From positions 82,305-146,304 of the forward strand of contig JBEKRX010000017.1 in NCBI GenBank assembly GCA_049518415.1: a stretch of DNA of 64,000 nt, given 5' to 3'. Below, piece by piece: positions 318-61,384 of this stretch. Positions within the stretch are counted from its first letter, which is position 1. Each line of letters starts with the position of its first letter. Source of the stretch: Verrucomicrobiota bacterium. GTDB taxonomy: Bacteria > Verrucomicrobiota > Verrucomicrobiia > Limisphaerales > UBA8199. Made by a program: the position numbers and the translations under genes. The notes below the pieces were generated by a model that had not been told where the DNA came from, made no database searches, and was given only the letters and a program-made list of their open reading frames with translations.

Positions 318-449
318 ATGCAGCTCCAAGTTAAGACCCTGCTCAACGCCGTTCAACACTTTGTTGGCTTCGTTTACCACGACATCCGCCTGCTGCGCGA
401 CCGCAAAGGCCGCCCCCGCCAAATCCAAAAAGGGGTCAGAGATGACTAA
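318..449 (+). pseudogene. ISL3-family transposase, N-terminal ~35-aa remnant
   Basis: MQLQVKTLLNAVQHFVGFVYHDIRLLRDRKGRP resembles the conserved ISL3 transposase N-terminus (KTILNRV.KFKGFVY). The frame ends at TAA 447-449, exactly where the 37-nt dispersed motif begins. No remainder of the transposase is present. Confidence 0.5.
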
Positions 450-468
450 TGGAGCATTTCGTGGCCCC
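432..468 (+). repeat. Dispersed 37-nt motif GGGGTCAGAGATGACTAATGGAGCATTTCGTGGCCCC (copy 1 of 4)
   Basis: Near-identical copies at 696-732 (same orientation), 921-950 (inverted) and 30675-30711 (inverted). Confidence 0.85.
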
Positions 469-485
469 TGCTAAAGGTTTGCCCC

Positions 486-690
486 CTACCACGGCTTCAA
501 CTGGTTCATGGCCTTGACCAGGGCGCGCCTGAGGGCCAGGGGCTCCATGCTGCCAGTTTGGCGATAGACGATCTTGCCGTCCGGCGCGAGCAGGACCGTG
601 TAGGGCAGGGCGCCCTGCCAGTCGGGGTCAAACGCGTCAATGAGCCTTTCCCGGTCGGCCGAGGAAAAGATCAAGTTCCGGCAGGAGGCC
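486..690 (-). pseudogene. 3'-terminal fragment of a thioredoxin-like/redoxin gene; truncated duplicate of the end of CDS 29539..30657
   Basis: The 62-aa ORF MIFSSADRERLIDAFDPDWQGALPYTVLLAPDGKIVYRQTGSMEPLALRRALVKAMNQLKPW matches the last 62 aa of the 372-aa redoxin at about 57/62 positions. Nucleotide similarity extends over 432-690 versus the reverse complement of 30453-30711. Confidence 0.85.
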
Positions 691-695
691 TTCTA

Positions 696-950
696 GGGGT
701 CAGAAATGACTCATGGAGCATTTCGCGTGACCGGATCATTCTTCCGAGGTTCGGCTGACCAACCGCAGCGCATTGGCGGCGGTGCGCCAGCAGCCCCTAA
801 TCAGTTCCCTCGCGGTCCAGCTCCACGTCATCGTCGTCCCCGCACGGAGCGCTGCGGCTATGCGTGCCTTCCCGCTCCAAGCGTAGCTTGCGTGGCGCGC
901 AGCAAGTCTGCCGGAGGAAGAAAAATGCGTCAATAGTCATCTCTGACCCC
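696..950. mobile_element. MITE-like 255-bp element bounded by inverted copies of the 37-nt motif
   Basis: Left end GGGGTCAGAAATGACTCATGGAGCATTT (696-723). Right end, reverse-complemented, GGGGTCAGAGATGACTATTGACGCATTT (950-923). That is about 24/28 matching terminal inverted repeats. No credible ORF inside and no obvious target duplication. Confidence 0.5.
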
Positions 951-998
951 TGCCCGACCAGGCGCAAGGACGGGCGCTGGGAACGCGGACTGGCCGGC

Positions 999-2752: not shown

Positions 2753-2798
2753 GGCGACAAAATTGCCAGAATCAGGCCGCCGCGGCCAGGCCAGCGCG
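2753..2798 (+). repeat. 46-bp direct repeat, copy A (GCGACAAAATTGCCAGAATCAGGCCGCCGCGGCCAGGCCAGCGC)
   Basis: Near-identical second copy at 3090-3134. The two copies bracket the hairpin-rich element at 2873-3000. Confidence 0.85.
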
Positions 2799-2872
2799 TT
2801 TCTGTTCTGCGCGGGGGGCGCATCCTGAGACTGCCCCCGAGCGCGGGCGGAAGCCCTCCCCCCATCCCCCCT

Positions 2873-3000
2873 CCCATGCGCTCGGAGCGCATGGGATGGG
2901 GGCGATCCCTTTTTCCACTTTACCCAGGGCGGCGGCCCGTCCCGCTGGGAGCGGGACGGGCCTTGCCCTGGGCTACTGTCTTGTTGCCCCTTCGGGGCAA
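2873..3000. repeat. Hairpin-rich intergenic element (family member 1)
   Basis: Three perfect or near-perfect hairpins: CCCATGCGCTC-g-GAGCGCATGGG (2873-2895); CAGGGC..GGCCCGTCCCGC-tggga-GCGGGACGGGCC..GCCCTG (2925-2970); TTGCCCC-ttcg-GGGCAA (2984-3000). Conserved linkers CCCTTT..TTTACCC and GGCTACTGTCT are shared with 9149-9260. Confidence 0.7.
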
Positions 3001-3089
3001 AAGGATGCCGCGCTGCGCGCGGGTAGAGTGGAATTAGCGGCAGTGTCGGGATGCGCCCAGTGCGGAGGGCCGACAGGCCGACAGGGGTG

Positions 3090-3134
3090 GGCGACAAAAT
3101 TGCCAGAATCAGGCCGCCGCGGCCAGGCCAGCGC
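3090..3134 (+). repeat. 46-bp direct repeat, copy B
   Basis: Matches 2753-2798. Confidence 0.85.
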
Positions 3135-3164
3135 CTTTTTGCTCCAACGTGAATTGGAATTGCA

Positions 3165-3196
3165 GCCCTTCAGCGCTGCAACGCTTCAAGGCAGTA
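3165..3196. repeat. Imperfect 8-mer tandem repeat (RSGCTTCA)x4 overlapping the stop of CDS 3170..4954
   Basis: gcccttca gcgctgca acgcttca aggcagta. Same 8-mer family as 5087-5118 and 7193-7232. Confidence 0.7.
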
Positions 3197-4954
3197 AACA
3201 TTAGTCACTCCCCGCAGGAAGATTTTCCCCGGCGCGAAGGCGGGGCTGGCGTGGAAGGCATCGCCCATTTGCGTGCGGAACAGTTCTTTGAATTGGCGCG
3301 CCGCTTCGACCACGACCGCGGCGCCTTTTTGGCTGAAGAGATAAAGCCGGTTTCCGGCCAGGGCCGGCGAGGCGTGGCATTCCATATCGAAGTCGTGCTC
3401 CCATTGCTTCTTTCCGTCTTTGGCGTCGAAGCAGGTGAGCAGGCCGCCGGTGGTGACGGTGAAGACCAGTTCGCCGTTGCTGGCCGGGCTGGTCACGTCG
3501 GGCACGTTCTCTTCGCTCACCCAGGCCACATGGGTTTTGGTCACGTCGCCTTGCCCGTCGGGACGAATAGCCAGCAGTTTTTCCGACGGGCTGGCCACGA
3601 AGACCAATCCGCCGGCGAAGATGGGCGAGGGGGTAATTTCGCCGTTGAGCCCCTCGACGCGCCAAAGTTCGGCGCCGTCGGTGGCCGCATAGGCAATGAC
3701 CCACGGGACGGCCAGGGTAATCACCTGCGCCTTGCCGGCCGTCTCGATGACGATGGGCGAGGCCCAGGAAGCGCCCACCTGGCGTGGCCGTTGCCAAAGA
3801 GTCTGGCCCGTGCGCCCATCCAGCGCCAGGAGCTTCGATTTGCCTTCCTCGCTCTCGCCCTGGTCCAGTTGGAGGAGGAGCCGGTCCTGCCAGGTGGCCA
3901 GCGAGGCGGCATGGCCGTAAGGATTCTTGAGCGGGCCAAGGCTCTTGGCCCAGACCAGCTTGCCCTCGAAAGTAAAGGCCGCCGTGTCGCCATTGGCAAA
4001 GAGCACATAAAGGCGCCGGCCATCCGAGGCCATCGTGGAAGCGGCATAGCCGGTCGTGTCCGGGACCTCCGCCAACTGGGCGGCGCCGCCGGGGACATTG
4101 GTCACTGCCTGCCGCCAGAGCAACTGGCCGGTCTTGCCGTCGAGGCAGAACACTTCACGCCGGGCGGCGTCCCCGCCGGAGAAAAAGACGCGGTCACCCC
4201 AAGTGATGGGCGAATTGAACCCAGGGGCCGGCACGGCAGTTTTCCAGGCAATTCCCGCGCCGGTGCTTACGTCCCAGCTCGCCGGGGCATTGGTAAAAGC
4301 CGAGACCCCTCCGCCGCCCGCGCCGCGGAAGCGGGGCCAGTTGTGGCTCAGTTCGTCGAGCGGCGCGGCATCGCTGGAGCCGGCGGTGACGGTGTCCGAG
4401 CCGAGGAGTTTGTCCAGGTCGGCGGGCCGCCTGGGCAAGGCGGTGCTCAGGCCCAGACTCAGTAGAAACAGGAATGCGCCGATGGCGGCGCCGCTGGCGG
4501 CCACACACCAGCGCGCGCGGGCGGCGGCGCGGGCGGGTTCGCCGGGGGCATCGCGCCGGGGCCGGGGCCGCTGCTTTTGGTAAGAAGCCAGCCGGGTCAC
4601 GGCGAGCACCAACAGGGCCACCCCGCCGAGCAACAGGTACACGCCTGCATCCATTCGCGACAACTGGCGGAAGTAGCGCGCACGGAGCTGCAAATCGAGC
4701 TGGCGAATGTTCTGCTTGAGCTGCTCATCGGCTGGGCTGAGCCTCAGTTTCTCTTTGTAGGCCTTGAGCCGGGGCGAGTTCAGCGGATCATCCGCTCGGG
4801 CCTGGAGCTGGCCCAGGAGCATCCCGAGACCGACCAGAGCCGCGAAAACGCCGGCCACCCACGCCGTCAGGCGCCAGGCGCGGCAGGCGCCCTGCTCCAC
4901 GCCCTCCGAAACCGGGGCCGTGGCTCTCGGTTGGTCAACCTGATTCCCACTCAT
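3170..4954 (-). CDS. Membrane-anchored PQQ-like (BamB-like) beta-propeller repeat protein
   Basis: 594 aa. Three N-terminal hydrophobic segments, then WPRFRGAGGGG and repeated blade signatures (LLWRQ, LVWAK, TLWQR, ELWRV, KQWEH). Confidence 0.75.
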   Translation of the reverse strand: MSGNQVDQPRATAPVSEGVEQGACRAWRLTAWVAGVFAALVGLGMLLGQLQARADDPLNSPRLKAYKEKLRLSPADEQLKQNIRQLDLQLRARYFRQLSRMDAGVYLLLGGVALLVLAVTRLASYQKQRPRPRRDAPGEPARAAARARWCVAASGAAIGAFLFLLSLGLSTALPRRPADLDKLLGSDTVTAGSSDAAPLDELSHNWPRFRGAGGGGVSAFTNAPASWDVSTGAGIAWKTAVPAPGFNSPITWGDRVFFSGGDAARREVFCLDGKTGQLLWRQAVTNVPGGAAQLAEVPDTTGYAASTMASDGRRLYVLFANGDTAAFTFEGKLVWAKSLGPLKNPYGHAASLATWQDRLLLQLDQGESEEGKSKLLALDGRTGQTLWQRPRQVGASWASPIVIETAGKAQVITLAVPWVIAYAATDGAELWRVEGLNGEITPSPIFAGGLVFVASPSEKLLAIRPDGQGDVTKTHVAWVSEENVPDVTSPASNGELVFTVTTGGLLTCFDAKDGKKQWEHDFDMECHASPALAGNRLYLFSQKGAAVVVEAARQFKELFRTQMGDAFHASPAFAPGKIFLRGVTNVYCLEALQR

Positions 4955-5086
4955 TTGAACTTATAGCTCCGGTCAAAAGCATATCCCGGCATCACTCTGC
5001 CTCAAACCCGAAAACCGAAGGCCGAATGACAAAGGCGCAAACTATACCTGCAGGCAGCATGACCTGTTTAACTTACTAGCTCGTCT

Positions 5087-5118
5087 AACGCTTCAACACT
5101 TCAAGGCTTCAGCGCTTG
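5087..5118. repeat. Imperfect 8-mer tandem repeat x4 overlapping the stop of CDS 5093..6505
   Basis: aacgcttc aacacttc aaggcttc agcgcttg, preceded by ACCTGTTTAACT (5062-5073), which is identical to 7175-7186. Confidence 0.7.
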
Positions 5119-6505
5119 AACATATTCCCTCGGTCGGCGCCCGAGCCGGACGATTTCGCGGGCAATACTCGAAGCAGCGCGCGCAGGCGACGCAGGCGCC
5201 GCGATCCGGCTCGTAATCAGTCCGCGGGCGATAAACCGAGAGACTGATGAGCTTTGCGCCGATGACCAGCCCCACCCAGGCGCCGAAAATCCAGCCGCCG
5301 ACCAGGAATCGCTGCCGGATGGCCGCGGCGTCGGTCAGGAGTTCTTTTGGGCTTTGGCGGGCGCGTGCGAGCGCCAGGTCGGCGTCCGTCAGGGTGCCGG
5401 TCTTGGGCGGGGTGTCGCGCTCGCGCACGAAGCGCTCGGCGAGCTTAACGGTGGGGTGCAACCAGGCGGCGGGGACGCTGAAGCGCCCCCCGAGCCAGAC
5501 GCCGCCGGCCAGGAGCACCGGCAGAAGCAGGAGCAGCCAGGCCAGCCGGCGGCGGTCTTCGGCCAGTTGCGGTTCGGCTCTGGCGGCCTGCGGTCGGCGC
5601 ATCGCGCCATAGGGGCAAGCGGCCTCGCACAACCGGCAGCGGGCACAGTCATCGGTCGCCACGCGCACGCCCCATTTCGCGACTGCCGCGCCCAGCTTGA
5701 GCAAGGCGCCATAGGGACAAAGAAACCGGCAGTAAGGGCGGCCGACGAACACGCCCAGCAGCAGCAGGGCCGCCCCCGCCAGCACCATCAAGGTGCGCCC
5801 GTTCAGCCGGAAGATGGGCACGAAGGGATCGTATTGACAGATGATAAACGCGCTGCCCGTCGCCGCGAACAAGACCCCCGCTCCCAAGTAGATGAAGGGC
5901 AACACACTCAGGCCATGTTCCAGCCAGGAGGGCACTTTCACCGGTTTGAGCAGGAGCAAATCCTGCAACGCCCCGTGCGGGCAGACGCCCGCGCAGAAGG
6001 TCCGGCCCGCGAACAGCGCGAACGCCAGCGGCAACACAAAGAAAGCCGTCACCACCAGCGGCACCGCGTAGCCGCCGTCTCCCAGCGCCAGCGCCACATT
6101 CTGCAGCGAGCCGATGGCGCAAACGCAGCCTTTGCGCCAGAACCCGAAGTAGAGGAGCGAGAACCCTGACAGCGCCAGCACGCCCCGGCGCGAGCGTTTC
6201 CGGTACACCACCCAGGTAGCCAGGCCCAGCATCACCCCCAGCACGGCGACATCCAGGTACTGCAAGAGCACCGCGCGCGCCGCCGGCGTGGGCATGACCG
6301 GGAGTTGATGGCCGCTCTCGAATTCGGGCGGGGGAAAGCGTTGCTCGGCCAGCCCGCTCGCACAGCAGAGGGTGAGGAGCAAGGCGTAAAGCGCAAACCG
6401 CAAAATCCAGCCCGACGCCGAGGCAGGCTCGACCGAGGGACCAGCGCCGCCTGCGCGCGCCGCCCGCCGCCTGCTGCACTGCGCACTGGCTTGGCGCCAA
6501 GTCAT
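5093..6505 (-). CDS. NapH/MauN-type membrane polyferredoxin (4Fe-4S binding protein)
   Basis: 470 aa and multi-TM. Motifs CAGVCPHGALQD and CRFLCPYGALLK, plus two CxxCxxCxxxCP motifs (CARCRLCEAACP, CVACARCFEYCP). Its ATG directly abuts the upstream stop (TGAATG at 6503-6508). Confidence 0.8.
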   Translation of the reverse strand: MTWRQASAQCSRRRAARAGGAGPSVEPASASGWILRFALYALLLTLCCASGLAEQRFPPPEFESGHQLPVMPTPAARAVLLQYLDVAVLGVMLGLATWVVYRKRSRRGVLALSGFSLLYFGFWRKGCVCAIGSLQNVALALGDGGYAVPLVVTAFFVLPLAFALFAGRTFCAGVCPHGALQDLLLLKPVKVPSWLEHGLSVLPFIYLGAGVLFAATGSAFIICQYDPFVPIFRLNGRTLMVLAGAALLLLGVFVGRPYCRFLCPYGALLKLGAAVAKWGVRVATDDCARCRLCEAACPYGAMRRPQAARAEPQLAEDRRRLAWLLLLLPVLLAGGVWLGGRFSVPAAWLHPTVKLAERFVRERDTPPKTGTLTDADLALARARQSPKELLTDAAAIRQRFLVGGWIFGAWVGLVIGAKLISLSVYRPRTDYEPDRGACVACARCFEYCPRNRPARAPTEGICSSAEALKC

Positions 6506-7078: not shown

Positions 7079-7132
7079 GGTTTTTCAGCAGAGACGAGCT
7101 TTCAAGAGCCTTGCGGGGCAGGGTGGCGGGGG

Positions 7133-7160
7133 CCGAGGGTCGAGGGCCGAGGGTCGAGGG
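7133..7160. repeat. Heptamer tandem repeat (YCGAGGG)x4
   Basis: ccgaggg tcgaggg ccgaggg tcgaggg, in the spacer between the NHL gene and the ferredoxin gene. Confidence 0.8.
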
Positions 7161-7192
7161 AGGTCACTTATTTAACCTGTTTAACTCCTTTA

Positions 7193-7232
7193 ACGCTTCC
7201 ACGCTTCCAGGCTTCCACGTCTTCACGTCTTT
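7193..7232. repeat. 8-mer tandem repeat x5 overlapping the stop of the NHL gene
   Basis: acgcttcc acgcttcc aggcttcc acgtcttc acgtcttt, preceded by AACTCCTTTAACGCTT (7183-7198), which is identical to 61323-61338. Confidence 0.8.
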
Positions 7233-13432: not shown

Positions 13433-15433
13433 TTACCTCGCCTTCACATCGTAACAGAACAGGAGGTCCTGATCGCGGATGTACAGTTTGCCGTTGGCAA
13501 TGACCGGGTGCGTCCAGGCCGGCTGCTGGCTGCGGTCGGGCTGGTCGAAGCGGCCACGCTCGAGGTATTGCTTCGGGTTCGGCTCAATCAGGAGCATGGT
13601 GCCCTTCTCGGTGCGATAGTAGAGTCGGCCATCCGCCAGGGCCAGCGAGCCTTTCGGCGCCCGGCGCTCGGCGTCGTCGCGCTCGTCCCAGAGAACGTTG
13701 CCGGTCTGGAAGTCGAGACAGACGAGGAAGCCACCCTCATTGCCGCCGTTGGCGCCATACAGGCAGCCGTCGAAGAAGATCATGCCGCCGTGGTGGTTTT
13801 GCATCTTCCTGGAGGAATAGACTTCTTCGGCCTTGACACCACCATTCGCATCCTTGCTCAGCTTCACCAAGCCACCGCCCGCACCATAGGCCGAGGCGGC
13901 GAACACCGTGCCATCGTGATAGACCGGCGTGGAACAGTTAATAGCCATGCCGTTGGCGGGCCGGTCATACCGCCAGAGGAACTTGCCGTCGGACGCCGCG
14001 ACCCCGACGAGTGCCCTCGCGGTGAGCTGCACGTACTGGCGCTGCCCGTCGAAGTCGATTGCGATGGCCGAGGCGTAGGCCGCTCCAGAACCGCCGAAAC
14101 CACCGGCACCACGGCCGGAGCCACCGGGACCGCGGCCGGGACCACCGGGACCGCGGCCCGGGCCGCCTGGACCACCATCGCGATTACCCCGACCGCCGCC
14201 GAAACCGCCGGCCACCTGGCTCATCATGCCTCCCTCAAAACCTTCATCCGGCTTCCAAACCTGGCCGCTCGAATCCGTAAATGGCGCGGACAGGCCGGCC
14301 TTGATCCGTAGGGTCGCTGCGGATGGCGCCGCACCGGTTACAGCCTCTGCCTGCGGAATGAGTTCAATCCCCTTAATTGCCGCGTTCTCGATCTGAGGCG
14401 TGAAAACAATGCGAAACTCTCCGTTGGTGACTTCCACAGGCACCGTTTCGATGTAGGCGCGGTTGGGACCGCCGGCCTTCGCCCAAACGTCAAAGTCCTT
14501 GAATTCATGCCCCTGGACATTGTAGGAAAAAACGCGCTGGCCAGGGCCGGTAATCCCTTCATAGGTCTCCGCAAAGTAGAGCTTCGCGAGATACTTGCCA
14601 TTGGGAACCTTGGAGGAGAAAGCTGTCATCCCCCAATGCTCGCTCATGAACAAGCCTGGGTCTTTGGTTCCGGTCACCACCGGGGCCGAGCCAGCGCCCC
14701 GTCCGCCGAGACCACCGGGGCCGCCGCCGGGACCGCCAGGCCCGCCCGCGGAACCACCCGGGCCACCGGGACTGCCACCGGGGCCGCCACCGGGACCGCC
14801 GGGCACCTGGCTCTTCCAGATCGTGTTGCCGGTCAACTTGTCGAGGGCCACCAGGATCGCGTCCTGGCCGCCGGGGGTGCAGATGACCTTATCACCATCA
14901 ACGAGCGGCGATTCGCGGTAACTCCAGGTTGGTACGCGCCCGCCAAAATCCCTCTGAAGGCTGCGTTGCCAAATGATCTTGCCGTCTTTGACCTGCAGGC
15001 AAGCCAGGTCGCCGCCCAAGCCCAGAACATAGAGCCGTTCGCCATCTACGGTCGGCGTGCACGCCGGCCCCTCTTTTCCCTGCGGCGCTTGCTGCTTGAA
15101 AGCGGACCCAAGGCGCGTCACCCAAAGTTCCTTGCCATCCTTTTCGGACAGGGCCCAAATGACTTCGTCGTCGCCGCGATTGCTCATGCCGAAGATCCGG
15201 CCAGCGGCAATGGAGGGACCGCTGTAGCCACCGCCGAGTCCGTTGATTTTCCAGGCGAGCGGTGGGCCGTCTTTCGTCCATTCCTTGAGCAGGCCGCTTT
15301 CCTTGGACATGGCGTTGCGGTCGGGACCCTGCCACTGCGGCCAGTCGTCAGCGCGCGCGCAGGACAGCAGGATGGTCCAACAAAGGGCGCTGATGACCGT
15401 CCTCTCAAGGTGCCCAGGTTCTTTCGTTCTCAT
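13433..15433 (-). CDS. Secreted PQQ-like beta-propeller protein interrupted by a malectin-like domain flanked by Gly/Pro-rich linkers
   Basis: 666 aa. Signal peptide followed by [13 protein letters not shown]. Propeller blades lie at aa 30-210 and 451-666. The insert at aa 211-450 has [30 protein letters not shown], then [41 protein letters not shown], then [28 protein letters not shown], then [21 protein letters not shown]. Confidence 0.75.
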
Positions 15434-19929: not shown

Positions 19930-21154
19930 CCAAGAACTGGCCCGCCGCCTGGCCGCGCTGCGCGAACAGGGACTCTATCGCGAATTGCGCCGCGTCGATT
20001 CGCCCCAAGCCCCTCACCTCGAGGTCGACGGCCAGGCCCTGCTCAACTTTTCTTCCAACGACTATTTGGGCCTCGCCAATGAGCCCGCTCTGAAAGAGGC
20101 CGCCTGCCAGGCCGTGCAGCGATACGGGGCCGGGGCCGGCGCCGCCCGGCTCACCTGCGGCTCGCTCGCGCCCCACCACGAACTGGAGGAAGCGCTGGCC
20201 GCCTTCAAAGGCGCCGCCGCTGCGCTGAGCTTTTCCACCGGCTACGCCGCCGCCCTTGGGGCCATCGGCGCGCTGGTGGGCAAAGACGACTTCCTCATTC
20301 TCGATAAACTCGTGCACGCCTGCATCGTCGACGCCGCCCGCCTCGCCGGCGCCAAACTCCGCATCTTCGCCCACAACGATACCGAAGACCTCGAGCACAT
20401 CCTCCAATGGGCGGAGCGGCAAGTCGGCCGCCCGAAGTCCACAGCCGACGCCTCGCGCCCGCGCGTGCTCGTGGTGACGGAGAGTGTTTTTTCGATGGAC
20501 GGCGACCAGGCGCCGTTGCGGGAGCTTGTGGCGCTCAAAGAGAAATACGGCGCGTGGCTGATGGTGGACGAGGCCCATGCCACCGGGCTCTATGGCCCGA
20601 ACCGGCGCGGCCTGGCTGAGGAACTCGGCGTCAGCGAGCAGATCGAAGTCCAGATGGGGACCCTGGGCAAAGCGCTGGGCGCGGCGGGCGGCTATATCTG
20701 CGGCTCACGGACGCTCATCCAGTACCTGGTCAACCGCGCCCGGACCTTCCTCTTCTCGACCTCGCCCGTGCCCGCGGCCGTCGCCGCCGCCACCGCCGGC
20801 ATCCGCTTCGTGCAATCCACCGCCGGCCAGCAGCGTCGCAACCTCCTCTGGCAACGAGTCTCCGACCTGCGCTCAGCTCTCGCCAACCAAGCCCCAGGGC
20901 CGCGCCCCCCGGCCCTCGCCCCTCTCCGCTCACCCCTGCCCGGCGCCATCATCCCCCTCCTGGTCGGCGACGAAAACCGCGCCGTGCAAATCTCCGCCGC
21001 CCTGCGCAGCCGTGGCATTTTCATCCCTGCCATCCGTTACCCAAGCGTCGCCCGCGGCCAGGCCCGCCTGCGCCTCACCCTCACGGCCGGCCACAGCCTG
21101 GCCGACCTCGAACAACTCCTGGCCGCGCTGCGGACCCTCGACTTCGGCGCTTGA
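19916..21154 (+). CDS. bioF: 8-amino-7-oxononanoate synthase
   Basis: LREQGLYRELRRVDSPQAPHLEVDGQALLNFSSNDYLGLANEP, TESVFSMDGDQAPL and MVDEAHATG. Start set at MSAFNQ (ATG 19916). Confidence 0.9.
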   Translation: MSAFNQELARRLAALREQGLYRELRRVDSPQAPHLEVDGQALLNFSSNDYLGLANEPALKEAACQAVQRYGAGAGAARLTCGSLAPHHELEEALAAFKGAAAALSFSTGYAAALGAIGALVGKDDFLILDKLVHACIVDAARLAGAKLRIFAHNDTEDLEHILQWAERQVGRPKSTADASRPRVLVVTESVFSMDGDQAPLRELVALKEKYGAWLMVDEAHATGLYGPNRRGLAEELGVSEQIEVQMGTLGKALGAAGGYICGSRTLIQYLVNRARTFLFSTSPVPAAVAAATAGIRFVQSTAGQQRRNLLWQRVSDLRSALANQAPGPRPPALAPLRSPLPGAIIPLLVGDENRAVQISAALRSRGIFIPAIRYPSVARGQARLRLTLTAGHSLADLEQLLAALRTLDFGA

Positions 21155-21231
21155 ACCTCAGACGCATTTCACTTTTTTTTGGTAGCCTTTCTGGCTTTTT
21201 ATCTTAATCCTCGCTCCTGATCTTCATCCGA

Positions 21232-21609
21232 ATGAATCGCCTCTTCGACCATGAGAAACTGGAGGTTTATCGGGAGTCTCTGGCCTTCGTCGCCTGGCTC
21301 GAGCCCCTGCTGCGAAAGCTGCCCAAATCGGTCGCCGTGCGTGACCAATTGGATCGGGCCAGTACCTCGATGGTTCTGAACCTTGCCGAAGGCAACGGAA
21401 AGTTCACCTCACCCGATCGTTGCCGTTTTTTTGACATTTCGCGCGGGTCGGCTCTGGAGTGTGCCGCGGCGCTGGATGTTCTGGCCTCCCCAGGCCGGTG
21501 TGAGTTGGGTGTGGTCGCCTCCGGGAAAGAGCGGCTACGCAGAATTGTTTCGATGCTCGTGGGGTTAATCAAAGCCAATTCTGATTGGCGGTTGCACGAG
21601 GGAGATTAG
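21232..21609 (+). CDS. Four-helix-bundle protein (23S rRNA intervening-sequence protein / Avd-like family)
   Basis: 125 aa. MNRLFDHEKLEVYRESLAFVAWLEPLLRKLPKSVAVRDQLDRASTSMVLNLAEGNGKFTSPDRCRFFDISRGSALECAAALDVL is the characteristic pattern of the TIGR02436 family. Confidence 0.85.
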   Translation: MNRLFDHEKLEVYRESLAFVAWLEPLLRKLPKSVAVRDQLDRASTSMVLNLAEGNGKFTSPDRCRFFDISRGSALECAAALDVLASPGRCELGVVASGKERLRRIVSMLVGLIKANSDWRLHEGD

Positions 21610-21665
21610 GATTAGGAGATTAGGATTAGGATTAGGATTAAGATTAAGATTAGGATTAAGGTCAG
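21604..21665. repeat. Hexamer tandem repeat (GATTAG/GATTAA), ~10 units
   Basis: gattag gattag ga gattag gattag gattag gattaa gattaa gattag gattaa ggtcag. Starts on the stop codon of the four-helix-bundle gene. Confidence 0.9.
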
Positions 21666-21730
21666 GAGGGACCACCCAAAAAAGTGAAGTGCTCCCTTGA
21701 ACCTCAGACTCTGGAATCAGGCCTTGAAAC

Positions 21731-29459: not shown

Positions 29460-29536
29460 GAATTGGAATTAAGATTGCGATTAGAGATTACGGGATTAGG
29501 ATTAGGATTAAGATTAGGATTGGAATTAAGTTAAAG
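29460..29536. repeat. Degenerate hexamer tract (GATTAG/GATTAA/GAATTG family) ending 2 nt before the redoxin ATG
   Basis: gaattg gaatta agattg cgatta gagatta cgg gattag gattag gattaa gattag gattgg aattaa gttaaa. Same unit as 21604-21665. Confidence 0.85.
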
Positions 29537-29538
29537 CC

Positions 29539-30657
29539 ATGAAACGAATTTCTTTCGCCTTGCTCGCCGGCCTGGCCCTGCTCCCTCCTGGCTTCGGGGC
29601 CGATTTTCAACCTGCCACCCTGCCGCTGGGCGCGCCCGCGCCGGATTTCGACCTGCCGGGCGTGGACGACCGCCGCCATGCGCTCAAGGACTTCGCGCCG
29701 GCCAAAATCCTGGCGGTCATCTTCACCTGCAACCACTGTCCTACCGCCCAGTACTATGAAGAGCGCATCAAGAGCATCGTGACCGATTACCAGGCCAAAG
29801 GCGTGGCCGTGGTCGCCATCATGCCCAACGACCCCAAATCCGTGCGCCTGGACGAACTGGGCTGGTCCGACCTGGGCGATTCGTTCCAGGAGATGAAACT
29901 CCGCGCCCGCGACCGGCAGTTCAATTTCCCTTACCTTTATGACGGCGATACCGAGGCGGTGGCCCGCGCTTACGGCCCGGTGGCCACGCCCCACGCCTTC
30001 CTCTTCGATGCCGGCCGCAAGCTCCGTTACCTCGGCGCCATCGATGACTCGGAACGCCCGGCGCGGGTCACGAAAAACTACCTGCGCGACGCCCTCGACG
30101 CCCTGCTCGCCGGCCAGGAACCCCCCGTCGCCCGGACCAGGGCCGTCGGCTGCTCCGTCAAATGGGCCGGAAAGGCCGAGGCGGTCAAGGCTTACCTGGA
30201 CCAACTGGCCGCCGAACCCGTCTCCCTCGCCCCGGCCGATGCGGAGGCCCTCAAGGCCCTGCGCAAAAACCAATCCGGCAAGTTCCGCCTGGTGAGCTTC
30301 TGGGCGACCTGGTGCGCCCCCTGCGTGGCCGAATTCCACGAATTGGTCACCCTCAACCGCATGTATCGCCATCGCGATTTTGAACTGGTCACCGTCTCGC
30401 TCAACCGGCCGGACGAGGACAAGGACGTGCTCGAGTTCCTGAAGAAGAAACAGGCCTCCTGCCGGAACTTGATCTTCTCCTCGGCGGACCGGGAAAGGCT
30501 CATTGATGCGTTTGACCCCGACTGGCAGGGCGCCGTGCCCTACACGGTCCTGCTCGCGCCCGACGGCAAGATCGTCACTCGCCAAACCGGCAGCATCGAT
30601 CCCCTGGCCCTCAGGCGTGCCCTTGTCCAAGCCATGAACCAGTTGAAGCCGTGGTAG
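29539..30657 (+). CDS. Secreted two-domain thioredoxin-like (TlpA/redoxin family) protein
   Basis: Signal peptide MKRISFALLAGLALL. Two CxxC centres: FTCNHCPTAQ and FWATWCAPCVAEF. Confidence 0.85.
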   Translation: MKRISFALLAGLALLPPGFGADFQPATLPLGAPAPDFDLPGVDDRRHALKDFAPAKILAVIFTCNHCPTAQYYEERIKSIVTDYQAKGVAVVAIMPNDPKSVRLDELGWSDLGDSFQEMKLRARDRQFNFPYLYDGDTEAVARAYGPVATPHAFLFDAGRKLRYLGAIDDSERPARVTKNYLRDALDALLAGQEPPVARTRAVGCSVKWAGKAEAVKAYLDQLAAEPVSLAPADAEALKALRKNQSGKFRLVSFWATWCAPCVAEFHELVTLNRMYRHRDFELVTVSLNRPDEDKDVLEFLKKKQASCRNLIFSSADRERLIDAFDPDWQGAVPYTVLLAPDGKIVTRQTGSIDPLALRRALVQAMNQLKPW

Positions 30658-30674
30658 GGGGCAAACCTTTAGAA

Positions 30675-30732
30675 GGGGCCACGAAATGCTCCATTAGTCA
30701 TCTCTGACCCCTTTCTGACCCCTTTCCTTTCC
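30675..30732 (-). repeat. 37-nt dispersed motif (copy 4, inverted) followed by (CTGACCCCTTT)x2
   Basis: ggggccacgaaatgctccattagtcatctctgacccc is the reverse complement of copy 1. It is followed by ctgacccctttctgacccctttcc. Confidence 0.85.
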
Positions 30733-34027: not shown

Positions 34028-37000
34028 TTATTGAGATTTTATCGCATAGAAACGTGCGCTGTCCCCGGCCGAATAGGGGAGGCTGACGCTGAAATTGCCA
34101 CGGCCATCGAACGTATTGACGCCAATCACCGTCCAGTTGGTGAAAGAAAGCGCCGCGTTGGTGGAGGTCAACACGTAATAGACACTGTTGGCCAGGCCGT
34201 TGGTGCCGCTGATGACCAAACTACTCGTTGCCGATTGAAAGCTGACGGCGGTAATTTTCGTCCCAGTGGTGGAGAAAGGCGGAGCGGCAGTGACCACCAG
34301 TTGGACGGCGGTGCTGTCAGCGCTCTCCTGGAGGGTCGCGTTGTAACCTGCGGGAAGAGTGCCCAGAACAAAGTCGTAGGTGCCACTGATGGGCGTGAGC
34401 GATTGGATCAGTGTCACTGTGCTGGGAACCCTGGCAAGCAGCGGCAATTCGGTCACATTGATGGTGTCGGTGCTGCCGGAAATCGTCAAGTTGCTCGTGA
34501 CGACTGGCGCGCCCGGTCCGCCGACCGCCAGGTTCAGCGTCGAATTGGCCAGGGTGATGCTGCCGATCGGCGCCGCCGCCGTGCCGATCGAACCAGCGAC
34601 CGAGGTCAGACTAACGGTGCCGTTCGTCACCGCAATCGAACTGACCCCGCCGCTGACGATGGTGCTGGCCGCCACCGTGCCGGCGACGTTCAAGCTGCCG
34701 TACGCCAACGTGGACGTGCCCCCGCCAAACGCCTGCCCCAAGGCAAGCTGATTGTTGACCACCACGGTGCCGCCGGGATTGACGGCGAGCGTTCCAGTGA
34801 CAGGCCTGTTCCCGGCGGCGGAGGACATGACTCCGAGTCCCAGCGTGTTTACATTCAAAGCGCCACCCCCCAGGTTGAAGATTCCTGCCGAATAGCCGCC
34901 GTCAGCGGCATTACGGCCCTTGCCCACTATGAGGGTGTCTATCATAATATCTGAAGTGCCGGCGCTGAGATCCACCAAGCCGGCGCTCGCAACCTGAAAG
35001 CCTCCAGGAGGCACAACAATGCCTGAACCTGGAGCGGCATTACAATTGCCGCCATTTTGTGTGTTATCGGCGACAATAAACTCCAACACGCGATCCGAAC
35101 TGGCGCCGCGAAGGTAAAGCTGTGACGGCGGCGTGAAATCGGGATTGAACTCGAAAACCGCAGTGCGGCTACATTGTTCCCTGCCGATGGTTATCGTGTC
35201 AGCGTAGATGGCATTGGTTTGTCCCAAATACAAATAATCCCCGTAGTCCCCAAACCCGGCAACGTCGTTTAGGACAAGCGCGGGCCCGGCGGTAGCCGCA
35301 TAGCCAGTCCCCTGAATGTTTCCCACCTGGGTCAGGCTTATGACGTTCGTTTTGGCCAGGTACACAATCCCATCCTGACGGCCGGCGTTGACGTAGGTTG
35401 CCTGCCCGGGGGTCGGGCCGTTTCCCTGAATGCCAATCAGAAAACGGCCGACGGTGGCTTTGAAGGTATCCAGGCCTGACATATCCAGAGTGGCATACAA
35501 ACCGATCTGCCCGCCTTGGTAAGTGCTGCTGCCTTCGGAGACGTATATGGCTGACCCAACGTTGGTGTTGTTGACGACCAGAGTCCCACCGGCGCCACTG
35601 ATGGTATTGTAACAGGTTCCGTAGCCTCCCGTATCCGTGTCCGTTCCAGAGCTCAGCATTATGCTAATATTCGTATTGAAAACCGTCAGCGTCACGCCGG
35701 GGTTAATAACGGTGTTGTGGGCATAGTCGTGGTTGCCGTAGGCGCTGCCGTTGGTCGCCGCGTACCACAACCCGCCCACCGTGATGTCGGCGTCCACGAT
35801 GTTGTCGGCCCCTGCCGTGGCGGAGGCGGACTCGCCGGTGTTAGCAAAAAATGCCGTGTCATACGTGGCCGGCAGCGGCGGCCACAGCCAATTGGCGCCG
35901 TCGGACCAGTTGATGTTGTTCGCGTTCGCGACATCGGGGCCATTCCAGAAGACGTTTCCCCGGGGTATAATCGGGCCGCTGCTGAACGTCGCCAGGATGG
36001 ACATCGAATCCCCGCTCTCGGTTACGTTTTGGACGACAAAACCGCCGGGGGCGCCGACCTGGAAGTTGGCGGCGCCGCCCACGATGGAACTGGCGGACTC
36101 GACGACGGTTACGGTCGCGGGATATGACTCGATGGGCGGCAGTGACAACAGATTGATCGTATTGATGCCGCTCGCGCTGACATTCTCGGCGTACATGTAG
36201 GAGGTGGCGAAGCCCGAGGCGCTCACGGTAATCGTCGCGTTGGTGAGGTTCAAACTGGTCAACGGAGCCGCGGCCGTGCCAATGCCATTGGTGGCTGCCA
36301 GCGAACCGCCATTCATGTTGATGATGCTGGTGCCGGCGCCACTGGCGCCGGGCGAGGTGGCGACCTGGGTGCTGGCCAGGATATTGTTCGCCAGGACTGA
36401 ACCGCCGTTGATGTTGAGCGTGCCGATCGGAGCGCCGGCCAAGGGGCCGCCGGCAAAGGCCAGATTGAGAGTGTCGTTGACTATCAATGTGCCCGTGCCG
36501 TTCACGTTGACCGTTCCCACAGCGTAGTTGTAAACATTGCCGTCGCTGTAAGCCGGGTTATAACTGACATTGACGGTATCCGCAGTGATGGTCCCCGCGT
36601 TGAAAGTGAGCGCGCCGGTCACCGCCGCCCCGCTGTTTAAGCTATTGCGCGAGGCTTTGCCGATTTGCAACGTGTTCACCAATGCATTGACCGTCCCGCC
36701 GGTAAAATCATTGGTGCCGGAACCTCCGCCGGAGGTTAAAGCGTTTGCCACTCCGTCTCCAATATTCCAACTCGCCACCGCGCCGCCGCTGGCGCCGCCA
36801 ATATAAACCGTCGGATTCCCATTCGTGAAAGCAGGATTGAAGAATATGCCGCCGCTCGCCCATTGGCGGCCGACACTAATGTAGTCGGCAAAGATGGCGT
36901 TGGTCTGGCCCAGGTAAAGGGACGAAGCCATATTATTCCCGTAACCCGCCTCGGTTTCGCCGTCGCCGGCGTCACCGACGTCGAGAGCGACCAGCGAAGA

Positions 37001-40280: not shown

Positions 40281-41585
40281 ATGAAGCACTACACTCGCCG
40301 CCAGTTTTTGGCCCGGGCCGGCGGGCTGGGCGCGCTGGCGGTTTGCGCCGGGCCGGTCCTCGCCTCGAGCAGCCGCCTGGGGAACAAGCTGCCGCTGGCC
40401 GAGGCCTTTGACCGGGAGATGGAGCGATTCATGTCGGCGCGGAAGGTCCCGGGCGGCGCGCTGGCGGTGCTGAAGGACCAGCGCCTGGTCTATGTCCGCG
40501 GCTACGGCTGGGGGGACCGGGAGAAAAAGGAGCCGGTGAAAGCGGAGTCTTTGTTCCGGATTGCCAGCATCTCCAAGCCGTTCACCGCGGCGGCCGTGCT
40601 CAAGCTGAGCGAGAGCCGCCGCCTGGACCTCGAGGCGCCCGTGCTCGAACTCGTGCGGCTGGAGCCGGTGCTGGCGAAAGGCAAACAGCCCGATGCACGC
40701 TGGCAGCGGGTCACGGTTCGTCATTGCCTGCATCATACCGGCGGCTGGGATCGCGCAGCCAGCGGCGACCCGATGTTTCGTTCGGGCGAGATTGCCCGGG
40801 CGGTGGGCGTTCCGGCCCCGGCCAACCAGGAGGCGATCATCCGTTACCTGCTGGGCCAGCCGCTCGATTTCGAGCCCGGCGCCCGCTATGCTTATTCGAA
40901 CTTCGGATATTGCCTGCTCGGGCGCGTGATTGAGAGAGTGAGCGGCCAACCCTACGAGCAATTCGTGCGGCAGGCAGTGCTGGCGCCCATGGGCATTCGG
41001 CGGATGCGGCTGGGGGTTTCGCTCGCCAGCGGGCGGGCGGAGGGCGAAGTGAGATACTACACCCCCAACAACCGCCGAAGCCCCAGCGTGTTCCCCGGGC
41101 AACCCGCCAAAGTCCCCGAGCCGTACGGCAGCTTCTGCCTGGAAGCGATGGACGCGCACGGGGGTTGGCTGGCCTCGGCGGTCGAGCTCGCCCGGTTTGC
41201 AGCGGCGCTGCAGGCGCCGGCGGGCAATGCCTCTTTGCAAGCCGACACCCGGCGAATCTTCTACGAGCCGCCGGCCCCGCCCGTCAGCCGGAAAGCCGAC
41301 GGCTCACTGGCGGATTATTATTACGGCTGCGGCTGGAACGTGCGCCCGGTGGGAAACCAGGGGCGCGCCAACTACTGGCACAACGGCAGTCTGCCCGGAA
41401 CGTTCACTCTGCTGGTGCGCCGCTTCGACGGCCTCAGTTGGGCGGCCCTCTTCAATCAACGCTCGGAATCTTCCCGCCTGCCCGATGGCGCCATCGACTC
41501 GGCCTTGCACCGCGCCGCCGATGCCGTGGCCGAATGGCCGGCGGATGATCTCTTTGCCCACGGACCACGGACCGGACGAGCGTGA
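40281..41585 (+). CDS. Tat-exported serine hydrolase (class C beta-lactamase / PBP4-like family)
   Basis: MKHYTRRQFLARAGGLGALAV is a Tat signal. FRIASISKPFTAAAVLKL contains the SxxK motif. Start set at ATG 40281. Confidence 0.85.
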   Translation: MKHYTRRQFLARAGGLGALAVCAGPVLASSSRLGNKLPLAEAFDREMERFMSARKVPGGALAVLKDQRLVYVRGYGWGDREKKEPVKAESLFRIASISKPFTAAAVLKLSESRRLDLEAPVLELVRLEPVLAKGKQPDARWQRVTVRHCLHHTGGWDRAASGDPMFRSGEIARAVGVPAPANQEAIIRYLLGQPLDFEPGARYAYSNFGYCLLGRVIERVSGQPYEQFVRQAVLAPMGIRRMRLGVSLASGRAEGEVRYYTPNNRRSPSVFPGQPAKVPEPYGSFCLEAMDAHGGWLASAVELARFAAALQAPAGNASLQADTRRIFYEPPAPPVSRKADGSLADYYYGCGWNVRPVGNQGRANYWHNGSLPGTFTLLVRRFDGLSWAALFNQRSESSRLPDGAIDSALHRAADAVAEWPADDLFAHGPRTGRA

Positions 41586-41614
41586 GTGGGTGAGTGGGTG
41601 AGTGAGTGGGTGGG
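41582..41614. repeat. Octamer tandem repeat (GTGAGTGG)x4, starting on the stop codon of the hydrolase gene
   Basis: gtgagtgg gtgagtgg gtgagtgagtgg gtggg. Confidence 0.85.
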
Positions 41615-61167: not shown

Positions 61168-61275
61168 TGCCGCCCCTGAGTATGTCGCTGCCGGGCGGCC
61201 CAAGGCGAGTACTTTGTGGCCCCAATTCTTAGCGAGGCCGCGCCTCAGACCGACGAGGCATGTCATTCATTCGCG

Positions 61276-61338
61276 CCTCGGGTGGCCTCGGGTGGCTGGG
61301 CCGACTTGGGAATTGGAAATTGAACTCCTTTAACGCTT
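61276..61338. repeat. Mosaic simple-repeat module: (CCTCGGGTGG)x2, GAATTGGAAATTG, AACTCCTTTAACGCTT
   Basis: The 16-mer AACTCCTTTAACGCTT (61323-61338) is identical to 7183-7198. GAATTGGAA(A)TTG recurs at 3151 and 29460. Confidence 0.8.
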
Positions 61339-61384
61339 GTTCTGTGGGCGGCCGCGGGCTACTTAAGTGCCGGAAAAACTCCGT

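Follow-up and report, generated by a model that had tools for sequence, protein, structure and literature searches.

Degenerate short-unit tandem repeats at the gene junctions of a peat Limisphaerales genome

Introduction

The window analysed here (the whole stretch of 64,000 nucleotides, part of which is displayed above) belongs to a Limisphaerales (Verrucomicrobiota) metagenome-assembled genome (MAG) from peat with a GC content of 63%. The most AT-rich spots of this genome are four short modules (L1–L4, at loci 1 to 4) situated at gene boundaries, which raises the question of what they are, how they came to lie there and whether they serve the neighbouring genes. A sequence-only reading had taken them for an element class rather than random low complexity, knew of no described family, and offered as candidate roles a translation insulator or re-initiation pad, a protein-binding array or the footprint of a cassette.

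Sequences compared

The family was searched for in ~85 kb, including two 8–10-kb extensions of the contig, and in a further 20 kb, taken from a second contig of that sample. NCBI lists the NHL-like protein as ABSF95_07830, and the JGI sample is 3300038426. L5 denotes a fifth family member outside the window, and three-digit labels (L003, L007 and so on) denote the other sequences compared. The relatives comprised one that is 94% identical in protein sequence and others with 78% identity in the NHL protein; the word search covered 1.27 Mb of relatives. Across the loci the arrays are identical in six assemblies, but these are essentially clonal and their identity is therefore uninformative on mutability. 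L003 shows 28 mismatches, all at its contig end.

A sequence family at gene junctions

The modules within the window are composed as follows:

3151..3196, minus strand: locus 1 module, units TTGAAGCGT, TGCAGCGC, TGAAGGGC, TGCAATTC, CAATTCAC
5062..5121, minus strand: locus 2 module, units TTCAAGCGC, TGAAGCCT, TGAAGTGT, TGAAGCGT, TAGACGAGC, TAGTAAGT, TAAACAGGT
5004..5026, minus strand: heptamer run in the locus 2 spacer, (TTCGGNN) x3, of the unit family CCGAANN, as in the hairpin arms of relatives
7166..7232, minus strand: locus 3 left array, a single degenerate array (nhmmer family match E = 4e-5), units AAAGACGT, GAAGACGT, GGAAGCCT, GGAAGCGT x2, then the 9-mers TAAAGGAGT, TAAACAGGT, TAAATAAGT
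7130..7160, minus strand: locus 3 right array, (CCCTCGA/CCCTCGG) x4.4 heptamers, found by Tandem Repeats Finder (TRF) with period 7 x4.4 or period 14 x2.2 at 100% matches
61315..61345, minus strand: locus 4 core, ACAGAACAAGCGTTAAAGGAGTTCAATTTCC, in a divergent ABC-transporter / glycosyltransferase spacer
61275..61296, minus strand: locus 4 decamer pair, (CCACCCGAGG) x2, found by TRF as (GCCTCGGGTG) x2.2 at 100%

The exact words reported to be shared between the loci were all recovered by word search within the window: AACTCCTTTAACGCTT occurs only at 7183 and 61323, ACCTGTTTAACT only at 5062 and 7175, and GAATTGGAA at 3151, 29460 and 61310, the last of these having been placed 1 nt too low. Two of the reported 8-mer arrays were also detected by TRF (5087–5121, (AACGCTTC) x4.4, and 7193–7224, (ACGCTTCC) x3.9), whereas the third, at 3165–3196, fell below the TRF score but was recovered by profile and alignment. 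A profile of the family without locus 1 still retrieved this locus with E = 0.04. The repeats of loci 1 and 4 are weaker, with 2–3 imperfect units.

A single exact 16-mer is in itself unremarkable, since each Markov shuffle of the window contained 0–4 repeats of 16 nt or longer. The stronger evidence comes from local alignment against 400 shuffles, in which L2 and L3 scored 45 (null maximum 27), L3 and L4 scored 33 (null maximum 26) and L3 and L5 scored 30 (null maximum 28), while the alignments of L1 with L2 and with L3 gave p values of about 0.003–0.005. Module comparisons on opposite strands were all at chance level. L2 and L3 are about 88% identical over 42 nt with one 8-nt gap, locus 2 being a paralogue of locus 3, and the family core can be written as AAGCG(Y)T..RARG..GTTAAAC, built from degenerate 8–9-nt tandem units. 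L1–L5 are a genuine sequence family beyond random low complexity, and the alignment scores uphold both the proposed element class and the common orientation of its four loci, to which a fifth is now added. The evidence from orientation is weaker than it appears because three of the four loci share one operon.

Five related loci occur within ~85 kb, four of them inside 10 kb; neither the two contig extensions, apart from L5, nor the 20 kb of the second contig yielded a further member. A metagenome scan with the 16-mer gave at least 119 matches, which among the matches listed all came from unrelated organisms and never from this one, and as such chance matches they are uninformative on the spread of the family. 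In one metagenome match, L167, the 16-mer word lies within a (NNNGTTAAA)n 9-mer array.

The reported overlap with stop codons of minus-strand genes was confirmed at three loci, the stops lying inside the arrays or at their edges. Unit 1 of locus 3 consists of the final codons and the stop (7223–7225) of the NHL-like gene, the stop codon of the NapH-like gene (5093–5095) falls within the third unit of locus 2, and the last five codons and the stop (3170–3172) of the PQQ-propeller gene come from the locus 1 module. Locus 5, some 2.6 kb to the left of the window, lies at the stop codon of dnaE. Along the left array of locus 3 the unit length drifts from 8 nt (GGAAGCGT) to 9 nt (TAAAGGAGT, TAAACAGGT, TAAATAAGT), and the 16-mer word straddles this change. 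In the window as a whole, AT-rich arrays with a period of 7, 8 or 10 are found in spacers or gene ends, and arrays within genes are of period 6, 9 or 12 unless they are weak GC-rich runs.

Turnover among relatives

The shared words had been described as conserved, and this did not hold: they are absent from the 1.27 Mb of relatives and are mutated already at 94% protein identity, where the module is present but AGTTAAACAGGT reads GGTTGAATAGGT. The locus 2 array is 80% identical to its orthologue in this relative (20% substitutions) and differs by one 8-nt unit indel. The flanks are 90–95% identical, so that the array evolves faster than its surroundings (Fisher p = 0.007). In the relatives whose NHL protein is 78% identical, as well as in L007, L032 and L042, ATGA-type stop/start overlaps join the genes at the orthologous NHL-Fer4 and NapH-PQQ junctions, and there is no module. 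Comparison of orthologous junctions, as the sequence-only reading had proposed, accordingly revealed both a change in unit number, in the 94% relative, and the outright lack of modules in the 78% relatives. The family is recent and fast-evolving and changes by unit indels. Since the arrays are positioned after stop codons, they would not be expected to switch the frame of a gene.

Arrays as such are common in the close relatives, with a density of 24 per 100 kb (56 of 109 being heptamers), and one and the same junction may be filled or empty depending on the species, with differing units. Gene junctions of Limisphaerales and of other members of the PVC group (Planctomycetota-Verrucomicrobiota-Chlamydiota) are colonised by arrays of 6–10-nt units, mostly heptamers. 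Tandem-repeat hairpins, some carrying a PF05635 gene and some lacking one, have repeatedly colonised conserved operon junctions of Verrucomicrobiota and Planctomycetota.

Inserted cassettes of the same repeat class

Further arrays of this class lie on the plus strand of the window:

21150..21709, plus strand: inserted cassette of the same repeat class, with a four-helix-bundle gene at 21232–21609 in its loop
29460..29536, plus strand: solo array, (GATTAG/GATTAA)n, reaching the ATG (29539) of an AhpC/thioredoxin-like gene
41582..41614, plus strand: class array outside the L1–L5 family, (GTGAGTGG) x4, beginning within the stop of a beta-lactamase-family gene

The cassette is bounded by 14-bp direct repeats (CTTGAACCTCAGAC, at 21150–21163 and 21696–21709) that represent a target duplication. 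It carries an outer inverted repeat (GCATTTCACTTTTTT / AAAAAAGTGAAGTGC) and inner arms made of (CTTAATC..) and, at 21597–21671, (GATTAG)n. The gene matches PF05635 (E = 3.5e-17) and also TIGR02436, and its protein has 7277 homologues at E<1e-5; divergent four-helix-bundle homologues were missed by tblastn with the window protein and found by an iterated HMM. Array-flanked PF05635 genes also occur in L206/L210/L211/L214, L007, L008, L010, L012, L014, L019, L027 and L032. The arms of hairpins without an ORF match the cassette arms of the same genome, at 61/62 nt in L032, and a miniature in L220 (18080–18236; z = −8.3), in which the 5′ end of a cassette including the first 19 nt of its ORF is joined to the 3′ end, is a clear internal-deletion derivative. 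The solo array at 29460 and the 3′ arm of the window cassette share an irregular 24-mer (24-nt exact match, 21623 and 29493). Cassette, miniature and solo-arm forms of the (GATTAG)n arrays all exist.

By analogy with these forms, the GAAGCGT-type family of L1–L5 would also derive from a cassette. The link is one of analogy: none of the four-helix-bundle genes found had arms of the GAAGCGT type, and loci 1–4 show neither terminal inverted repeats nor target duplications against the empty sites in L218/L219. Among the roles initially considered, the footprint of a cassette or mobile element nevertheless fits best, given that the modules are missing at the junctions of the nearest relatives and that other arrays are cassette arms.

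Origin of the modules

It seems to us about evenly balanced whether or not L1–L5 are paralogues of one young, lineage-specific intergenic repeat that belongs to the short-unit array class, presumably as solo or decayed arrays, and that serves as inert spacer. Under this reading an array would have been inserted or seeded at a junction with formerly overlapping stop and start codons, would then have been copied into nearby junctions, and would later have changed by gain or loss of whole units through slippage together with rapid substitution. In this and related genomes arrays of the class are the arms of hairpin cassettes with a four-helix-bundle gene (23S-rRNA-IVS-protein / Avd-like), or of their ORF-less deletion derivatives, or persist as solo arms; the modules are best read as slippage-prone spacer repeats of this class and may be decayed solo arms. 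With four members inside 10 kb and none found in the 20 kb of the second contig, local copying fits better than transposition. The heptamer run at 5004–5026, which is weakly base-paired to the locus 2 array in the MFE fold (spacer z = +0.53), may be a decayed right arm; the right and left arrays of locus 3 show no complementarity.

A more far-reaching version, possible but rather doubtful, would see in the modules the decayed solo arms of a so far undescribed kind of selfish "messenger-RNA intervening sequences" of PVC bacteria. These would be hairpin cassettes with arms of 6–10-nt repeats and an IVS-protein / Avd-like gene in the loop, preferring ATGA junctions, duplicating their target, riding on host transcription with putative excision by RNase III, and decaying via ORF-less hairpins to solo arrays. 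The 23S rRNA intervening sequences would then be one habitat of such elements, and most short intergenic tandem repeats of PVC bacteria their footprints.

The modules might instead be unrelated to cassettes and of purely local origin, slippage having copied the final 8 nt around a stop codon and template switching (microhomology) or gene conversion having carried the product to neighbouring junctions. Locus 3 does open with two exact copies of the gene-terminal AAGACGTG, its unit 1 being the gene's own terminal octamer, and the ancestral end of the NHL gene, AAGGCGTGA, resembles an array unit, which suggests an origin in situ. A unit-length indel separating close relatives and the clustering of members on one contig would also be expected, and polymerase slippage has been held responsible for the bacterial excess of heptanucleotide repeats, at least in the summary of Mrazek 2007 given in PMC4679880. 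However, slippage alone leaves unexplained why separate loci share the order of units and a non-repetitive part (…GAAGCGTTA.A.GAG…TTAAACAGGT), nor does it account for locus 4 at a distance of 54 kb, and other arrays of the same organism demonstrably travel within inserted cassettes. We consider this local origin unlikely.

Functional readings

The young intergenic repeat described above would serve as a spacer and nothing else. A post-transcriptional element, on the other hand, would be an unstructured purine-rich pad after stop codons that terminates stray ribosomes in all three frames and offers the next cistron a putative standby or loading site, or a binding array for CsrA-, S1- or Csp-like proteins (GGA / single-stranded RNA). 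All five members are sense-oriented with the adjacent genes and four of the five begin at a stop codon, the TGA-containing 8-nt units provide stops in three frames, and GGA recurs in many units. Folding of the RNA is equal to or worse than that of shuffles at loci 1–4, with z values of +1.34 (whole locus 3 spacer), +0.53, −0.13 and +0.04 and no stable hairpin on either strand. A comparable role has been proposed for the TAACTGA repeats (PMC4679880). Against this stand the core words, which have already changed at 94% protein identity and are missing in other species, and the same junctions of close relatives, which function without a spacer. The spacing between a module and the start downstream of it is not constant (57 to about 120 nt), and GAAATCC, the commonest unit in relatives, has no stop in any frame. 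Of the five members only two contain the SD-like AAGGAG previously pointed out in the modules, and no start codon lies at a workable distance from it. Taken together, these findings do not support an insulator of translation, a pad for re-initiation or a protein-binding array whose words are conserved, and we judge a post-transcriptional role of the modules to be quite improbable.

The inverted-pair arrays of relatives do form long hairpins (z = −5.6 to −10.8), and no sense-strand bias was found in their stability: at four operon junctions the difference between sense and antisense stability ranged from −30 to +26 kcal/mol with no consistent direction, for which reason an RNA-only function of the hairpins is not claimed. 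The complementarity of the heptamer arms derives from their constant CCGAA/TTCGG core, and no co-variation was seen by eye in the two variable nucleotides. Within the modules there is no terminator-like site (GC-rich stem-loop followed by a T run), and Rfam 15 gave no match at gathering score across the whole window, which contains no rRNA.

Internal promoters or UP-like elements for the downstream genes, formed by the AT-rich words (TTAAAC…TAAAT), are very improbable. The modules are the AT-richest sites of the genome and locus 2 has one weak sigma-70-like match (TAAACA, 18-nt spacer, TATAGT, 9/12), measured against a consensus that may not be that of this phylum; yet this is one match where 0.3 are expected, loci 1, 3 and 4 have none, and the −35-like word is mutated in the 94% relative. 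Chance resemblance among low-complexity intergenic stretches is hardly credible in view of the module alignments, for although the single 16-mer lies within the Markov range and is common by chance in unrelated metagenomes, three pairs score beyond all 400 shuffles, the similarity is strictly orientation-specific and the profile retrieves a left-out member.

Most likely the modules are inert spacers only, which keep once-coupled genes apart and provide stops, among them those of the genes themselves. We infer that they are not sequence-specific regulatory sites and that the family has no function. The lack of conservation across species leaves room for a species-specific role, and the sense orientation and the starts at stop codons could reflect function rather than tolerance.

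Relation to described repeats

That no described family matches the modules is true in part, in that repeats of this kind are known: long simple-sequence repeats with 5–11-nt units, STRR heptamers, and the GGGAATC and TAACTGA repeats. The STRR of cyanobacteria are heptamer tandem repeats. The GGGAATC repeats of Xanthomonas and the GGGGA(T/C)T repeats of Nostoc are long simple-sequence repeats, and STRR heptamers have been mentioned for Calothrix (PMC4692102); a general excess of heptanucleotide repeats in bacteria goes back to Mrazek 2007, here as far as it is summarised in PMC4679880. Like long simple-sequence repeats, the modules consist of head-to-tail units of 6–10 nt whose lengths are not divisible by three, and at least three copies are present at 5087–5121 (x4.4), 7193–7224 (x3.9) and 7130–7160 (x4.4). 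The arrays are intergenic, also within operons, some as inverted pairs, and the non-triplet units are enriched outside coding sequence. Unlike long simple-sequence repeats, the units here are degenerate and drift from 8 to 9 nt along an array, many unit types occur per genome, arrays are physically tied to PF05635 cassettes, and no G-quadruplex potential was seen in the L1–L5 family.

The TAACTGA direct repeats of marine Beggiatoaceae, Cyanobacteria and Bacteroidetes have one unit conserved across phyla and lie a few nucleotides upstream of start codons (PMC4679880). They resemble the modules as heptamer-scale intergenic tandems near gene boundaries, co-oriented with genes and patchily distributed in phylogeny; L1–L5, by contrast, are species-specific, lie at stop codons and have unconserved words.

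Intervening sequences (IVS) of 23S rRNA with an S23p / PF05635 ORF are known from Coxiella and Leptospira, and their functionality and origin have been called unclear (PMC4990558). The cassette at 21150–21709 and its homologues are similar in that a PF05635 ORF of ~125 aa lies inside terminal inverted repeats that could form a long stem, with a length of about 0.4–0.6 kb and a sporadic distribution. They differ in lying between protein-coding genes and not in helix 9/25/45 of 23S rRNA, in having arms of tandem 6–7-nt units, in the 14-bp target duplication of the window copy and in the existence of ORF-less miniatures. A long terminal stem around an optional S23p/PF05635 ORF is found in the cassettes only, the L1–L5 modules having neither stem nor ORF.

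REP, BIME and REPIN sequences and MITEs are short intergenic non-coding repeats. The arrays share with them the intergenic location, the hairpin doublets often seen in relatives, presence or absence at orthologous sites and the existence of ORF-less derivatives beside a gene-carrying parent. Unlike REP, BIME or REPIN sequences they have no conserved palindromic core, and loci 1–4 form no stable hairpin. Terminal inverted repeats with a target duplication, as in MITEs, occur in the window cassette and not at loci 1–4, and the L220 miniature provides the relation of deletion derivative to parent, although the cassette gene encodes a four-helix-bundle protein and not a transposase. Neither a RAYT nor a transposase was found in the part of the genome analysed; a 45-aa fragment at 39815–39950, which looks RAYT-like (N-terminal), has no Pfam or NCBIfam match.

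Consequences for annotation

Shared AT-rich words in a GC-rich genome invite regulatory readings, against which the present case advises caution, such words being here the residue of a fast-turnover repeat. The cassettes and their derivatives offer a concrete and testable source for an old and unexplained observation, the surplus of heptamer repeats between the genes of bacteria, bear on the origin of the 23S rRNA intervening sequences and provide a handle on the role of the very large family of stand-alone four-helix-bundle/Avd-like proteins. For annotation, some genes have real stop codons that are array-derived, and false N- or C-terminal extensions arise when ORF callers read through arrays, as with the NapH-like protein (470 vs 436 aa) and the ABC transporter (653 vs 620 aa).

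Repeat modules at loci 1-4

Exact word search recovered all the words and coordinates that the sequence-only reading had listed at four loci (near 3141-3200, 5055-5120, 7127-7232 and 61276-61345), with a single slip: GAATTGGAAATTG lies at 61310, not 61309. The arrays found are as follows.

Short tandem arrays in the window (first four lines, loci 2-4, from Tandem Repeats Finder)
5087-5121: (AACGCTTC) x4.4, locus 2
7130-7160: heptamer/14-mer array, locus 3
7193-7224: (ACGCTTCC) x3.9, locus 3
61275-61296: perfect decamer pair, locus 4
21604 and 29468: (GATTAG)n, spacers
Further spacer arrays: (GAAAGG)4, (CCAATCCAG)3.6, (TTTCCAGTTA)3, (GTGAGTGG)4, (CCGATAG)4.6

On the minus strand, a single uninterrupted degenerate array (AAAGACGT, GAAGACGT, GGAAGCCT, GGAAGCGT, GGAAGCGT, TAAAGGAGT, TAAACAGGT, TAAATAAGT) makes up the left half of locus 3; its first unit is the final two codons and stop of the NHL-like gene, and the 16-mer word of the earlier reading is the junction where 8-nt units give way to 9-nt units. 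The same progression is seen in locus 2, whose third unit contains the NapH-like stop; the PQQ-propeller gene takes its five C-terminal residues and its stop from locus 1. In L167, an unrelated metagenome contig of 57% GC, the 16-mer falls within a tandem array of 9-mers, (NNNGTTAAA)n (GAGCGTTAA AAGCGTTAA AGGAGTTAA AAGGGTTAA AAGGGTTAC), whose unit type is that of the locus 3 9-mers.

Against dinucleotide shuffles, loci 1-4 show no excess folding stability on either strand (z -0.13 to +1.34), and Rfam has zero matches anywhere in the window. A scan of the modules detected no terminator-like sites and a single weak match of sigma-70-like type, which lies in locus 2.

Mechanical ORF calls run into the repeat or spacer DNA and overstate gene length for the NapH-like ORF (5093-6505; 470 aa versus 436 aa as called and conserved) and the ABC transporter ORF (59305-61266; 653 versus 620 aa). 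The NapH-like proteins of 440-544 aa in relatives probably include translated arrays.

A low-copy family with a fifth member

An exact 16-mer is unremarkable in 64 kb, first-order Markov shuffles yielding 0-4 repeats of at least 16 nt, and at least 119 metagenome contigs from unrelated organisms match the word in question by chance. Local alignment scores exceeded all 400 shuffles for locus 2 against locus 3 (45 versus a null maximum of 27; ~88% identical across 42 nt, allowing one 8-nt gap), for locus 3 against locus 4 (33 versus 26) and for locus 3 against a fifth member, L5 (30 versus 28), which was found by extending the contig and begins at the dnaE stop codon, ~2.6 kb to the left of window position 1. 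Locus 1 aligned to loci 2 and 3 with p ~0.003-0.005 against shuffles, and all comparisons in opposite orientation were at chance level. A profile made without locus 1 recovered it at E = 0.04 and found no further members across ~85 kb or along 20 kb of a second contig of this sample. Four of the five members lie inside 10 kb. Alignment, orientation and profile searches thus establish a real family of few copies, clustered locally and lying in the same orientation as the genes next to it. This bears out the earlier observation of related co-oriented modules and extends it by L5.

Conservation among relatives

The source of the window is a genome from a peat metagenome (Verrucomicrobiota, order Limisphaerales). 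Loci 1-3 belong to one minus-strand cluster (NHL-like, Fer4 of 190 aa, NapH-like polyferredoxin, PQQ propeller) that is conserved across Verrucomicrobiota and Planctomycetota, so that ~80 orthologous regions could be used for comparison. The closest relative compared, with a NapH-like protein 94% identical to that of the window, carries locus 2 at the equivalent position; array identity there is only 80%, with a length difference of exactly one 8-nt unit, versus 90-95% identity in the flanks (Fisher p = 0.007). Relatives one step further away (NHL 78% identical) and several species representatives lack a module at the NHL/Fer4 and NapH/PQQ junctions, which are plain stop/start overlaps or spacers of a few nucleotides. 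The words regarded as conserved are not: none occurs in 1.27 Mb of relatives, even with mismatches allowed, and AGTTAAACAGGT has already become GGTTGAATAGGT in the 94% relative. Judging by the module-free junctions and the diverged array, the modules are younger than the split from the NHL-78% relatives, have spread to several junctions, and evolve faster than their surroundings via substitution and unit slippage.

PF05635 cassettes and their derivatives

The ORF at 21232-21609 encodes a four-helix-bundle protein that matches PF05635, '23S rRNA intervening sequence protein' (E = 3.5e-17), and TIGR02436; Avd, an accessory protein of DGRs, is of the same family (PMC10053308). It lies in a 532-nt insert with perfect 14-bp target-like direct repeats on each side, the first of which takes in the upstream gene's stop codon. 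Around the ORF lie nested inverted repeats, whose inner 3′ arm, (GATTAG)n, is the source of the ORF's own stop codon. This architecture is like that of the Coxiella 23S rRNA intervening sequence (IVS), in which an S23p ORF lies between terminal inverted repeats, with a stem cut by RNase III and an unexplained origin (PMC4990558).

Homologues at 77-95% identity form more than 120 clusters. The layout (CTAATC)n - ORF - (GATTAG)n recurs in homologues, and a neighbouring, more divergent PF05635 gene is bracketed by (TCAGAGG)n and (CCGCTGA)n. An iterated HMM search found PF05635 genes in eight relatives, seven of them at the same NuoF/NuoG-like junction and all between heptamer arrays, CCGAANN-type or other.

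Hairpins lacking the ORF, elsewhere in these genomes, share arms with the cassettes (61/62 nt in one arm and 87.5% in the other in comparison region L032; 90% and 87% in L007). One such hairpin of 157 nt, on the second contig of the sample (L220, 18080-18236; z = -8.3), aligns to the cassette 5′ end, which takes in 19 nt of the ORF start, joined to the cassette 3′ end, and on this alignment to both ends it is an internal-deletion derivative of the cassette. The solo array at 29460-29536 has an irregular 24-mer in common with the cassette arm. With these three forms, the series from cassette to ORF-less hairpin to solo array is documented for the (GATTAG)n lineage.

Short arrays occur at 24 per 100 kb in close relatives, 56 of 109 being heptamers, and at 7 per 100 kb in more distant, mostly planctomycete, loci. 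Those of the relatives are very often inverted pairs, e.g. (AAATCCG)8 - loop - (CGGATTT)8, forming long hairpins (z -5.6 to -10.8) without a consistent sense-strand bias in stability, so that an RNA-only function cannot be claimed. Each junction of the conserved cluster is empty in some species and holds arrays or hairpins in others, with a unit that varies by species. Inserts that split a stop/start overlap have ATGA(+1) on either side, a pattern that would be expected of a small target duplication, although selection to retain stop and start could yield the same.

In a NuoE/F-like fusion gene, (TAATCT)n and (CAGTCCA)n arrays lie inside the linker of the coding sequence (L219 11729-12007; L008 ~14100-14200) and are translated, e.g. 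as '…LDLSRNPNPPPNLP…'; arrays can thus be absorbed into proteins. A direct repeat of 33 bp, GTGCCAAGGTGCCGGAGCC.GG.GGATCTTCCC, 94% identical, lies on either side of the (CCGATAG) x4.6 array at window 57130-57228.

Origin of the modules

The modules of loci 1-4 and L5 are recent, unconserved, unstructured and slippage-prone, and their family is part of a class of short-unit arrays that colonise gene junctions. By analogy with the (GATTAG)n series, we infer that a cassette lineage left them behind as decayed solo arms. The sole hint is a (TTCGGNN)3 run in the locus 2 spacer, an arm type found throughout the Limisphaerales; among the cassettes found, no PF05635 gene had arms of the GAAGCGT type to which the modules belong. 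The earlier proposal of an element class or cassette footprint is partly supported.

The chief alternative is that the modules arose purely locally. In its favour are the start of locus 3, where the terminal octamer of the gene stands in two exact copies, the resemblance of the unit to the ancestral gene end (AAGGCGTGA) and the clustering of the members. A functional pad after the stop codon, which would be purine-rich, unstructured and GGA-rich with stops in three frames, is unlikely, since the modules are unconserved and close relatives do without them. The regulatory interpretation put forward earlier is not supported. The modules are taken to be inert spacers, which would uncouple genes that once overlapped and supply stop codons incidentally.

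Intergenic repeats of 5-11 nt with an excess of heptamers are described in other phyla, without established function, e.g. GGGAATC-type in Xanthomonas and Nostoc (some as inverted pairs), heptamers in Calothrix and TAACTGA in Beggiatoa (PMC4679880, PMC4692102). The present family is an ordinary member of this known kind. A limited literature search, which is not proof of novelty, gave no report of such repeats in Verrucomicrobiota or Planctomycetota, nor of tandem-repeat arms around PF05635 genes. The interest lies in the context: tandem-repeat hairpin cassettes with an IVS-protein gene at operon junctions, and their miniatures.

Other elements in and around the window

Immediately adjoining locus 1, a 45-55-bp direct repeat (GGCGACAAAATTGCCAGAATCAGGCCGCCGCGGCCAGGCCAGCGC…) surrounds a 282-bp GC-rich element (2753-3144), which holds several small, perfect hairpins and whose terminal inverted arms, 40 nt long, are imperfect; it may be another insertion, with a very long target duplication. 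A segment of 260-530 bp, spanning the 3′ end of an AhpC/thioredoxin-like gene and a downstream (TCTGACCCCTT)2, is present at least four times, in copies 94-96% identical and in part inverted (window 429-955 and 30450-30715; comparison region L001 16388-16650 and 17727-18252). The window contains the 18-mer TAGTCATCTCTGACCCCT three times. A short ORF at 39815-39975, starting MARKIRLEYAGAGYHVARGNQGRDIY… and cut off by the (CCAATCCAG) x3.6 array, has no Pfam or NCBIfam match; it may resemble the N-terminus of IS200/RAYT-like Y1 transposases. At 62668 the window lacks 89 nt, including the 3′ end of a Memo-like gene, relative to the otherwise identical JGI contig Ga0427943_000221 (L216 11285-11373), which is either an assembly difference or a real deletion. 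Finally, the ~1800-aa ORF at 34028-39466 has a long internal direct duplication, with many exact 15-33-mers offset by ~3.3 kb, e.g. at 35088 and 38418.
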